Under the pieces are notes generated by a model. It was not told the origin of the DNA. It made no database searches and worked only from the letters and a program-made list of their open reading frames with translations. From the IMG/VR virus record IMGVR_UViG_2579778952_000010: a stretch of 24,510 nt of DNA, one strand, 5' to 3'. The position numbers were made by a program, and so were the translations under genes. The first letter of the stretch is position 1. Each line of letters begins with the position of its first letter. Origin of the DNA: a virus (Duplodnaviria; Heunggongvirae; Uroviricota; Caudoviricetes). This document shows, piece after piece, positions 22,381 to 22,803 of the stretch.

Positions 22381-22563
22381 TCAGTTCTGCAGACACTGCC
22401 GAACACCGTCGACAATTTCACAGACCTGAGACGCGGTATCGAAAAGCTGGCGCGCCTTATCCAGGCTGACGCACCCCACCAATAAAAAAGGCACCAGTAT
22501 CGCTACCAGTGCCCGTTTCACCGCCGTTCGCGGCATTCTGTGTGTCCAGTGTTTTCGCGCCAT
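22381..22563 (-). CDS. Small lipoprotein (signal peptide with lipobox LVGC; about 30-aa mature peptide with 3 Cys)
   Basis: 60-aa ORF with basic n-region, hydrophobic h-region and L-V-G-C lipobox. Its start lies 2 nt after the stop of the upstream 37-aa ORF. Confidence 0.45.
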   Translation of the reverse strand: MARKHWTHRMPRTAVKRALVAILVPFLLVGCVSLDKARQLFDTASQVCEIVDGVRQCLQN

Positions 22564-22564
22564 A

Positions 22565-22678
22565 TCACCACCAACGCACAGCCCAAATCAGAACAGCGAC
22601 CGCCACAAGGCGAATTGCAAAGGCCGCAGCCCTTGTCAAATCAAGGCTCGCGGGAGTTTCCATTTCAATACCTTTCAT
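22565..22678 (-). CDS. 37-aa peptide with C-terminal transmembrane segment
   Basis: ORF MKGIEMETPASLDLTRAAAFAIRLVAVAVLIWAVRWW; GAGG about 10 nt upstream; a TATAAA -10-like hexamer lies about 30 nt upstream of the ATG. Confidence 0.3.
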   Translation of the reverse strand: MKGIEMETPASLDLTRAAAFAIRLVAVAVLIWAVRWW

Positions 22679-22770
22679 AATGGACAACCTCAAAAAGAAT
22701 CTTTTATACTTTCCCACGAGGATTTTCTCCCTACTCACTAATCACAATTTCCCCTTTGACGTGAAAACTA

Positions 22771-22803
22771 AAAACCCCGGACTGTTCCCCCAGCCGGGGT
22801 TTT
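22771..22803. terminator. Bidirectional intrinsic terminator-like hairpin downstream of the endolysin gene
   Basis: AAAA-CCCCGG-(A)CTG-loop-CAG-CCGGGG-TTTT: GC stem flanked by A-run and T-run, so a T-tract follows the hairpin on either strand. Confidence 0.6.

Follow-up and report, generated by a model that had tools for sequence, protein, structure and literature searches.

A lipoprotein gene in the lysis cassette of phiP27-like prophages appears to occupy the spanin slot without an inner-membrane partner

Lysis of Gram-negative hosts by phages is thought to need a dedicated third step, in which spanins bridging the two membranes act on the outer one. No spanin can be recognised in about 15% of phages and, to our knowledge, the disruptin is the only spanin alternative that has been characterised. 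What takes the place of a spanin is the question raised by a 24,510-nucleotide (nt) stretch of viral DNA (Caudoviricetes; IMG/VR record IMGVR_UViG_2579778952_000010; the whole stretch is called the window below), whose right end is the minus-strand late region of a phiP27-like Escherichia coli prophage. Two small open reading frames (ORFs) lie there between an endolysin gene and an HNH endonuclease gene, one for a 37-amino-acid (aa) membrane peptide and one for a 60-aa lipoprotein. A first interpretation, made from the letters of the window without database searches (the sequence-only reading), had taken the two for a moron-like cassette behind the lysis terminator, perhaps acting in exclusion or envelope modification. 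Its observation that the lipoprotein is not a canonical Rz1 was confirmed; the two-gene unit, the moron and the exclusion function were not borne out. Judged by its gene context, the lipoprotein seems to take the place of a spanin with no partner in the inner membrane.

That the lipoprotein ORF is a genuine gene under purifying selection follows from its variation. We recovered 136 homologues, and the frame was intact in all 46 distinct nucleotide alleles from related loci, with a ratio of nonsynonymous to synonymous substitution rates (dN/dS) of 0.22, while the other five frames gave values of 0.34-1.87 and each contained stop codons in at least 29 of the 46 alleles. No other ORF encloses the gene. 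An antisense 86-aa ORF, which the sequence-only reading had named as the possible real gene, was rejected: over the overlap it evolves neutrally (dN/dS 0.93), most relatives have it interrupted or match it in part only, and neither PHROGs nor Pfam gave a match.

The encoded protein (MARKHWTHRMPRTAVKRALVAILVPFLLVG up to the lipobox glycine, and CVSLDKARQLFDTASQVCEIVDGVRQCLQN from the cysteine on) carries a signal peptide whose basic N-terminal region of 17 residues leads into an invariant hydrophobic core and then the lipobox L-V-G-C31 (codons at 22482-22471), which fits the PROSITE-type pattern and is invariant across the family. Its mature part of 30 aa contains no proline, has Val at the +2 position and, as the sequence-only reading had seen, is rich in Cys; the two further cysteines, Cys48 and Cys57, are invariant in the core alignment, as are the lipobox and much of the long basic N-terminal region. 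The +2 residue, which by an established rule governs Lol sorting, is V, A, T, G or S in the family and never Asp, and sorting to the outer membrane is therefore predicted. The first ATG, giving the 60-aa form, is the likely start because codons 1-17 are conserved (dN/dS 0.23), a Shine-Dalgarno-like GGTGGTGAT lies upstream, and in a Mu-like phage (locus L099) this ATG overlaps the endolysin stop codon (ATGA). The annotation pipeline PGAP calls a 51-aa form from Met10 (L001 2782-2937) despite the conservation of codons 1-9, a start that would be nine codons too late, and in the GenBank/RefSeq record of phiP27 the gene (L002 2572-2760) is covered by a wrong-frame ORF, L32 (L002 2648-2803).

The family corresponds to phrog_7528 (E 1.5e-35), labelled as of unknown function in PHROGs. 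The search against Cor-, Bor- and entericidin-like families that the sequence-only reading had suggested gave nothing: no Pfam family matched at E <= 0.1 (Bor, Rz1 and entericidin should be covered; coverage of Cor and Llp was not checked), NCBIfam gave one weak sub-threshold match (E 0.089), PADLOC gave no match, and no solved structure in the PDB was similar in sequence. A match to phrog_1275, annotated as an Rz-like spanin, was set aside as weak (E 0.048) and lying mainly in the signal peptide (residues 13-48). When 1.84 billion representative proteins were searched with a profile, 22 hits came back, all from Enterobacterales; those inspected were short lipoprotein-like ORFs or evident fusions and frameshifted calls, and a second subfamily (ending GCVSLEKARNWFGVAADVCDTVKKIKDRCNDRK) was among them.

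The evidence on function comes from where the gene is found. About 190 loci were fetched, the two IMG/VR scans sharing some contigs; a scan of genome contigs with back-translated patterns gave 3 loci only, the patterns being too specific, and divergent members were reached by a hidden Markov model search and by exact-protein look-ups. At every locus with enough recovered flank, the intact lipoprotein gene directly follows the endolysin gene. Phage_holin_8 and Phage_holin_3_7 genes precede an M15 endolysin gene in the window and in L087, L096, L189 and L190 (P27-type and others), and a GH108 endolysin gene in L089, L090 and L185 (Cronobacter and E. coli) and in the Mu-like L099; a holin3_1 gene is combined with M15 in L097 and L181 (gaps of 4 nt and 1 nt) and with GH108 in L183. 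The distance from endolysin to lipoprotein in compact cassettes is 4, 7, 14 or 16 nt, or there is an ATGA overlap. The packaging and virion modules that follow vary among carriers (HNH/TerS of P27, Nu1/A of lambda, Terminase_2/6, a Mu portal), as does the cargo upstream, and the lipoprotein gene therefore stays with the lysis genes and not with tail genes or morons. We are fairly confident that it belongs to the lysis cassette and is not a moron. Of 5426 complete E. coli genomes, 352 (about 6.5%) have a member of the family; the carriers include enterotoxigenic E. coli (ETEC) H10407, whose lipoprotein gene is 100% identical, and prophages that encode Stx2e, Stx2k, subtilase or pertussis-like toxins.

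The distribution of the gene is complementary to that of Rz/Rz1. Reference queries for Rz and Rz1 found no match in loci with an intact lipoprotein gene, and Rz has been reported in 277 of 279 Stx phages, the two exceptions forming a P27-type cluster with a metallopeptidase endolysin (PMC8136144). The only lipoprotein copies that we saw in Rz/Rz1 cassettes, in nine loci of the lineage of Stx phage GER2, are decayed, with a frameshift and three stop codons; about 79% identical and unannotated, they lie between bor and the terminase gene of Stx2 phages (L006 3001-3198; L130; L152 3859-4042). From its identity band, this lineage appears to include the phage of the O104:H4 Stx2a outbreak strain (H71, H72). 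Neither the window nor the divergent loci that were read showed an i-spanin gene (encoding an N-terminal transmembrane (TM) domain and a periplasmic coiled coil) that encloses, overlaps or adjoins the one for the lipoprotein, and the neighbouring small ORFs read in five loci encode soluble proteins or tiny TM peptides. A lipobox scan of the 24.5-kb window, six representative loci and the whole P27 genome revealed no other plausible late-strand lipoprotein; the sole other credible one in P27 is L05, of the early region. The distinction from Rz1 drawn in the sequence-only reading, on the grounds of composition and of a missing i-spanin, has thus stood in this wider set of genomes.

One published assignment differs. 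Kongari et al. (2018) listed phiP27 as having a separated two-component spanin, in a singleton family of its own (PMC6139136). The window lipoprotein is homologous to their o-spanin (20706-20861; 51 aa, 30 of them periplasmic), their i-spanin is a 64-aa ORF (20348-20542), and the pair, with a total periplasmic length of 62 residues, is the shortest in their data set (PMC6139136). The 64-aa ORF (L002 2891-3085, minus strand) begins with TTG, matches no PHROG family, is absent from the window and from 80 viral loci, and runs antisense to a 90-aa ORF (L002 2829-3101, plus strand) with a match to phrog_36812 (E 5e-20); the 64-aa ORF is unlikely to be a gene. In the literature on lone o-spanins and spaninless lipoproteins we found the family described nowhere beyond this census entry, and no experimental work on it. 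The lipoprotein gene is a narrowly distributed but recurrent stand-alone "o-spanin-like" gene that has been catalogued once already.

The mature part is predicted to be helical. In the table of Kongari et al., 25 of the 30 mature residues of the phiP27 homologue are helical (PMC6139136). The helix is moderately amphipathic (hydrophobic moment ~0.5), and in a heptad register seven of the eight a/d positions are hydrophobic; one register includes Cys18 (mature numbering), and Cys27 continues the 3-4 spacing. The C-terminal half is polar (ending VDGVRQCLQN), and the signal peptide is the sole hydrophobic stretch. Within the signal-peptide codons the minus strand can also form a hairpin with a 10-11-bp stem and a GCGA loop, followed by a U6AUU run. 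It is specific to the sense strand (-18.4 kcal/mol, z -4.3, against -9.1 for the plus-strand version) and is kept in nearly all alleles, including those of a 58%-identical subfamily (L096). A rare AUA codon is used in it, substitutions preserve pairing, and synonymous diversity is lower there (proportion of synonymous differences, pS, 0.14 against 0.25-0.28). The hairpin is a candidate attenuator that might keep the gene off unless transcription is antiterminated by Q.

The membrane peptide upstream is a gene in its own right. Compared between the window and phage GER2, its 37-aa core (MKGIEMETPASLDLTRAAAFAIRLVAVAVLIWAVRWW) has a pS of 0.72 and a corresponding nonsynonymous value (pN) of 0.065, which bears out the sequence-only reading on this ORF and shows it to be under purifying selection. 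Because its N-terminus is basic, its hydrophobic C-terminal half holds the TM segment and it ends in RWW, the peptide is probably tail-anchored with its N-terminus inside. It belongs to phrog_4493/phrog_1115, to which PHROGs assigns no function. An alternative start, GTG at 22717 (VGKYKRFFLRLSIMKG...), would give a form of 50 aa, often chosen by gene callers (P0122, 108 members); it is plausible alongside the shorter form because GGAG lies 9 nt upstream and the codon has switched between GTG and ATG in L059, L101 and a Cronobacter paralogue. A still longer 57-aa form from a GTG at 22738 was discarded, as relatives have indels and in-frame stops upstream of 22717. Two possible starts recall the dual-start motifs of holins, by analogy.

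Peptide and lipoprotein are not one unit, because each occurs without the other. The lipoprotein gene directly follows the M15 stop codon, with no peptide between them, in Salmonella salamae and in at least 21 loci among the first 80 viral ones (in L087, the one such junction that was read, after 16 nt), and about a quarter of close relatives have neither peptide nor terminator in this interval. Conversely, about 55 of 80 IMG/VR loci collected with the peptide have the order R lysozyme, peptide, Rz/Rz1, with no lipoprotein, the remainder having holins, endolysin, peptide and lipoprotein; in GER2 and PhiR5_1 the same ORF lies directly upstream of Rz. The spacing between the two genes, given as 2 nt in the sequence-only reading, is a single base (22564; TGA T ATG). 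Other mini-TM ORFs, paralogous or unrelated (phrog_1115, phrog_4906, phrog_6632), also occur in this interval. The peptide would thus be a separate, independently mobile and dispensable accessory, possibly a modulator of lysis timing.

As an observation in its own right, many lambdoid cassettes have, between the endolysin gene and the gene for the outer-membrane step, from one to three very small ORFs for single-pass membrane peptides (phrog_1115/4493, phrog_4906, phrog_6632), many of them unannotated (three in a row before Rz in PhiR5_1, L005 2505-3039; also L089 4641-4996 and L090 4844-4999), and some, such as P0138, are recombinants between paralogues.

The hairpin that the sequence-only reading had taken for the end of the lysis cassette appears to belong with the peptide. 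It has a T-run and is stable on both strands (z -4.2 to -4.3), and it accompanies the peptide always, whatever the upstream gene (M15, GH108, R lysozyme or other inserts); its stems differ in sequence between lineages and yet still pair. Together they make up a ~233-bp insert located between the normal stop codon of the endolysin gene (22812-22810) and a conserved junction, TGGTGGTGAT-ATG, and compact cassettes lack it. Because Stx phages have this hairpin and the peptide ahead of Rz/Rz1, the terminator is, on sequence comparison, a part of the peptide insert and not a marker of the cassette's end. If lambda is a guide, polymerase modified by Q should read through the terminator, and genes for Q-type antiterminators lie upstream in P27, L088, L097 and L189. 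The TGGTGGTGAT-ATG junction precedes either Rz or the lipoprotein gene (window 22564-22576; L087 2829-2841; L006 about 4392-4404), and a second shared sequence, GCAGAAT(A/G)TT(T/C)TGCTGAAAAATG, follows the lipoprotein stop codon in the window (22351-22373) and the R lysozyme stop codon in GER2 (L006 about 4700-4725). Such short sequences may be recombination linkers of the lambdoid mosaic.

Nor did we detect signals of independent transcription on the coding strand. The TATAAA noted in the sequence-only reading as a -10-like element is present at 22709-22704; its role as a promoter found no support, as there is no -35 element with it, a promoter scan gave nothing on the coding strand, and the six bases are Tyr-Lys codons in the 50-aa form of the peptide. 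The same scan detected no terminator after the lipoprotein stop codon. On the plus strand there is a sigma-70-like site, TGGACA-18-TATACT (22681-22710; 10 of 12 consensus positions), that faces the bidirectional terminator and would yield an RNA of about 90 nt antisense to the 5' region of the peptide gene; its hexamers are conserved in GER2 and match at 4/6 and 6/6 positions in the Cronobacter paralogue.

Because of its position in the lysis cassette and a distribution complementary to that of Rz/Rz1, we infer that the lipoprotein stands in for Rz/Rz1 in the outer-membrane step of lysis, either performing that step or helping with it, a reading to which we give about an even chance. In enterobacterial prophages of the phiP27 type and their relatives, the lipoprotein gene would be the last conserved gene of a holin(s)-endolysin-lipoprotein cassette and would be read together with the lysis genes as part of a Q-antiterminated late operon; in the lysogen, the upstream and internal hairpins would halt polymerase that is not antiterminated, leaving the gene off. 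By the sequence rules, the product would be exported and, after lipidation at Cys31, delivered by Lol to the outer membrane's inner leaflet, where its mature helix of about 27 residues, amphipathic and heptad-like, would present two conserved cysteines on its hydrophobic face and probably form disulfide-linked oligomers. Once the endolysin has removed the wall, the lipoprotein would perform or assist the outer-membrane step with no phage-encoded partner in the inner membrane, whether by destabilising the inner leaflet, by activating PldA in the manner of bacteriocin release proteins (BRPs), or by interacting with a host envelope protein. The peptide would arrive with its own terminator between the endolysin gene and the next gene for the outer-membrane step (Rz in Stx phages, the lipoprotein here), and the TGGTGGTGAT-ATG junction would couple its stop codon to the start of that gene. 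A bolder version, which we hold only tentatively and regard as doubtful, is that phrog_7528 represents a third kind of outer-membrane lysis effector after the spanins and the cationic disruptin: a single amphipathic, disulfide-bonded lipopeptide of about 30 aa with no inner-membrane component, to whose action the conserved signal peptide may contribute, as in BRPs.

Comparison with known systems shows partial likenesses. The lipoprotein resembles o-spanins such as lambda Rz1 and its relatives in being a small, predicted outer-membrane lipoprotein with conserved periplasmic Cys, encoded in a lysis cassette after the endolysin; it differs in having no enclosing, overlapping or adjoining i-spanin in any context examined, in its proline-free, predicted helical mature part (Rz1 is proline-rich and unstructured), and in a total length far too short to bridge the envelope as two-component spanins do. 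Like gp11 of T1, a unimolecular spanin, it is a single gene with a lipoprotein signal in the spanin slot, but gp11 is anchored in the inner membrane by a C-terminal TM domain and its periplasmic domain comprises about 100 aa, whereas the lipoprotein ends in a polar tail (CLQN) without a second anchor. Colicin lysis proteins and BRPs are made as precursors of 45-60 aa, need no partner to permeabilise the envelope as mature lipopeptides of about 28-33 aa, and have functionally important signal peptides; the lipoprotein matches them in mature size and has an unusually conserved signal peptide, but it has no Pfam match and is encoded in a phage late operon rather than an SOS-controlled colicin operon. 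The disruptin gp28 of phiKT (bioRxiv 10.1101/515445) offers a parallel as a small protein, not a spanin, that takes over spanin function in a phage lacking one, although gp28 is cationic and amphipathic and lacks a lipoprotein signal, whereas the phrog_7528 lipoprotein has a net charge of about -1. Cor, T5 Llp, Bor and the entericidins are also small lipoproteins of phages or prophages; their genes lie beside tail or receptor-binding genes or have promoters of their own, whereas the lipoprotein gene is coupled to the endolysin gene and its product lacks a Pfam match (with coverage of those families as given above). The peptide, for its part, recalls Lcc6 of Shewanella phage LambdaSo (bioRxiv 10.1101/2024.01.23.576932), a single-pass membrane protein of fewer than 70 aa among lysis genes; Lcc6 is required for lysis, whereas the peptide is missing from many otherwise similar cassettes, and the two were compared by description, homology not being expected.

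The exclusion function of the sequence-only reading would make the product a lysogenic-conversion or superinfection-exclusion lipoprotein, expressed in the lysogen from its own promoter, masking a receptor or changing the envelope like Cor, Llp or Bor, perhaps with the peptide as its partner. Small prophage lipoproteins often act in exclusion, the gene follows a strong terminator in the window with TATAAA upstream, and the interval from endolysin to terminase is a known moron site that holds, for example, bor in Stx phages. In compact cassettes, however, there is no room for a promoter, the terminator precedes Rz/Rz1 in other phages as well, the promoter scan was empty on the coding strand, and a terminator-like sense-strand hairpin lies inside the gene; the linkage is to holin and endolysin genes while tail and receptor-binding modules differ among carriers, and the family searches were negative. 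We consider this unlikely. A late accessory in the periplasm or outer membrane, without membrane-disrupting activity of its own (for instance one that regulates the timing of endolysin or holin, or one that shields released virions from cell debris), would show the same linkage to the cassette, has precedents among unexpected small lysis factors (Lcc6 of LambdaSo and the endolysin-regulation factors of Mu), and avoids the difficulty that no mechanism is known by which a lone lipopeptide would disrupt the outer membrane. A specific protein-protein regulator would not be expected to keep its place with two unrelated endolysin families and two holin sets, and functional equivalence accounts better for a distribution complementary to that of Rz/Rz1; such a role seems to us rather unlikely.

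An ultra-short two-component spanin, with the upstream TM peptide or the P27 64-aa ORF as i-spanin and the lipoprotein as o-spanin, is suggested by the order of a TM protein and a lipoprotein with translational coupling, which resembles the separated architecture in which Kongari et al. placed P27 with its 62 periplasmic residues, and by the unrelated peptide families (phrog_6632, phrog_4906) found at the same spot in other loci. The TM segment of the peptide is, however, at its extreme C-terminus, leaving it either no periplasmic domain or one of 16-28 aa at the most; the peptide is missing altogether from at least 21 of 80 loci and elsewhere is found ahead of complete Rz/Rz1 pairs, and the 64-aa ORF has the defects described above. 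This arrangement is highly improbable. Hardly better is the idea that the small, hydrophobic peptide is the toxin of a type I toxin-antitoxin-like module, repressed by the antisense RNA of about 90 nt that the bidirectional terminator would end, with the lipoprotein as unrelated cargo. The plus-strand site and its conservation in GER2 and, in part, in the Cronobacter paralogue speak for it; yet the site is only a consensus match in a segment conserved for other reasons (coding sequence and ribosome-binding site), Rfam gave no hit, the predicted RNA would miss the ribosome-binding site and ATG of the 37-aa form, and the peptide is always found inside late lysis operons, coupled to the next gene. 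We regard it as very unlikely.

Several points weigh against a role of the lipoprotein in the outer-membrane step itself. The support for that role is gene context throughout; the family is narrow (22 hits in 1.84 billion proteins, Enterobacterales only), and its linkage to lysis genes could partly reflect shared descent, while the decayed copies in Rz/Rz1 phages are a single lineage and were counted as one event. A mature peptide of 30 aa cannot span the periplasm, its net charge of about -1 means that it is not cationic, and AlphaFold2 run on a 17-sequence alignment gave one long helix at low confidence (predicted local distance difference test score, pLDDT, 65), too uncertain for a fold search. 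We know of no mechanism by which a lone outer-membrane lipopeptide disrupts the membrane in phage lysis. Spanins, moreover, are dispensable under some laboratory conditions, and these phages may lack any outer-membrane step, the lipoprotein having some other late function.

Table 1. Features of the late region at the right end of the window
Feature	Coordinates	Strand	Evidence or remark
TerB-like gene	24510-24085	-	
DUF3927 (TciB-like)	24088-23936	-	
Phage_holin_8 family protein	23455..23847	-	Pfam E 8e-23; PGAP
Phage_holin_3_7 family protein	23190..23465	-	Pfam E 2e-21; PGAP
M15 L-alanyl-D-glutamate-type endolysin	22843..23187	-	phrog_465, E 6e-58; PGAP in relatives: M15 metallopeptidase, 125 aa
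Terminator hairpin, bidirectional	22771..22808	both	-21.5 (minus strand) / -20.5 (plus strand) kcal/mol; approximate limits; left edge of peptide insert
Mosaic insert, ~233 bp (terminator and peptide ORF)	22577..22809	-	alignment to compact loci L087 and L096 and to GER2
Membrane peptide, 37-aa form	22565..22678	-	PGAP call; pS/pN against GER2
Membrane peptide, alternative 50-aa form	22565..22717	-	GTG start, GGAG 9 nt upstream
Lipoprotein gene, 60 aa	22381..22563	-	phrog_7528, dN/dS 0.22
Terminator-like hairpin inside lipoprotein gene	22480..22514	-	-18.4 kcal/mol, z -4.3
Antisense 86-aa ORF, rejected as gene	22225..22485	+	dN/dS 0.93
35-aa ORF, conserved	22100-22207	-	phrog_8025, E 1e-22

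As can be seen in Table 1, the minus-strand order runs from the TerB-like gene through DUF3927, the two holin genes, the M15 endolysin gene, the hairpin, the peptide and the lipoprotein to a 35-aa ORF, beyond which lie the genes for the HNH endonuclease and the small and large terminase subunits. A 1.1-kb region is 99.8% identical to prophages of ETEC strains, in which PGAP calls both small ORFs hypothetical proteins. The endolysin gene of the window has a 1-bp deletion in a C-run near 22879 (22879-22882; CCCC to CCC) that exchanges the last 22 residues (IAIEWGGDWKTLKDGPHFQLKR, including the conserved PHF histidine, which we presume to be a metal ligand) for SLSNGAGTGKR. The resulting truncation is unique to the window, as 73 of 78 related loci with M15 match the full 125-aa reference and none of the 78 shares it; it is either a homopolymer sequencing error or the mark of a lysis-defective prophage. 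An Rfam scan of 21500-24510 gave sub-threshold chance matches only.

Some side observations concern the surroundings of the cassette. The slot upstream of the holins holds cargo that varies among relatives: the TerB-like and DUF3927 genes in the window (23936-24510), Stx2e in phiP27 (L002 4696-5931), pertussis-like or Scabin-like ADP-ribosyltransferase toxins in Cronobacter and E. coli relatives (L089 2489-3217, L185 1331-2537), and subtilase SubAB in another E. coli prophage (L190 5420-7183). On the other side, the 35-aa ORF lies just upstream of the HNH gene with a good Shine-Dalgarno sequence (AGGAG) and no predicted TM segment, and in a lambdoid relative a 286-aa alpha/beta-hydrolase (esterase or dienelactone-hydrolase-like; L097 5450-6310) follows the lipoprotein and may be cargo or related to lysis. 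L004 (PP818812.1, "Actinobacillus phage vB_Apl-pPE4"), deposited as a phage of Actinobacillus pleuropneumoniae, has a lysis region 94% identical to that of the E. coli prophage, and its host assignment looks doubtful.

These findings bear on annotation and on the biology of the phages concerned. Three corrections are suggested: to the wrong-frame L32 of phiP27, to the PGAP start of the lipoprotein and to the published phiP27 i-spanin. The terminator-plus-peptide insert, ending at TGGTGGTGAT-ATG, is a clear example of module exchange at gene boundaries of the lysis cassette. The release of toxins from carrier prophages (Stx2e, Stx2k, subtilase and pertussis-like) depends on lysis, and the lipoprotein family is a compact and easily tested candidate for another spanin alternative. 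If the lipoprotein does act in the outer-membrane step, membrane fusion of the Rz/Rz1 type would not be the sole lipoprotein-based solution, and the "o-spanin" of phiP27 would be a one-component system.

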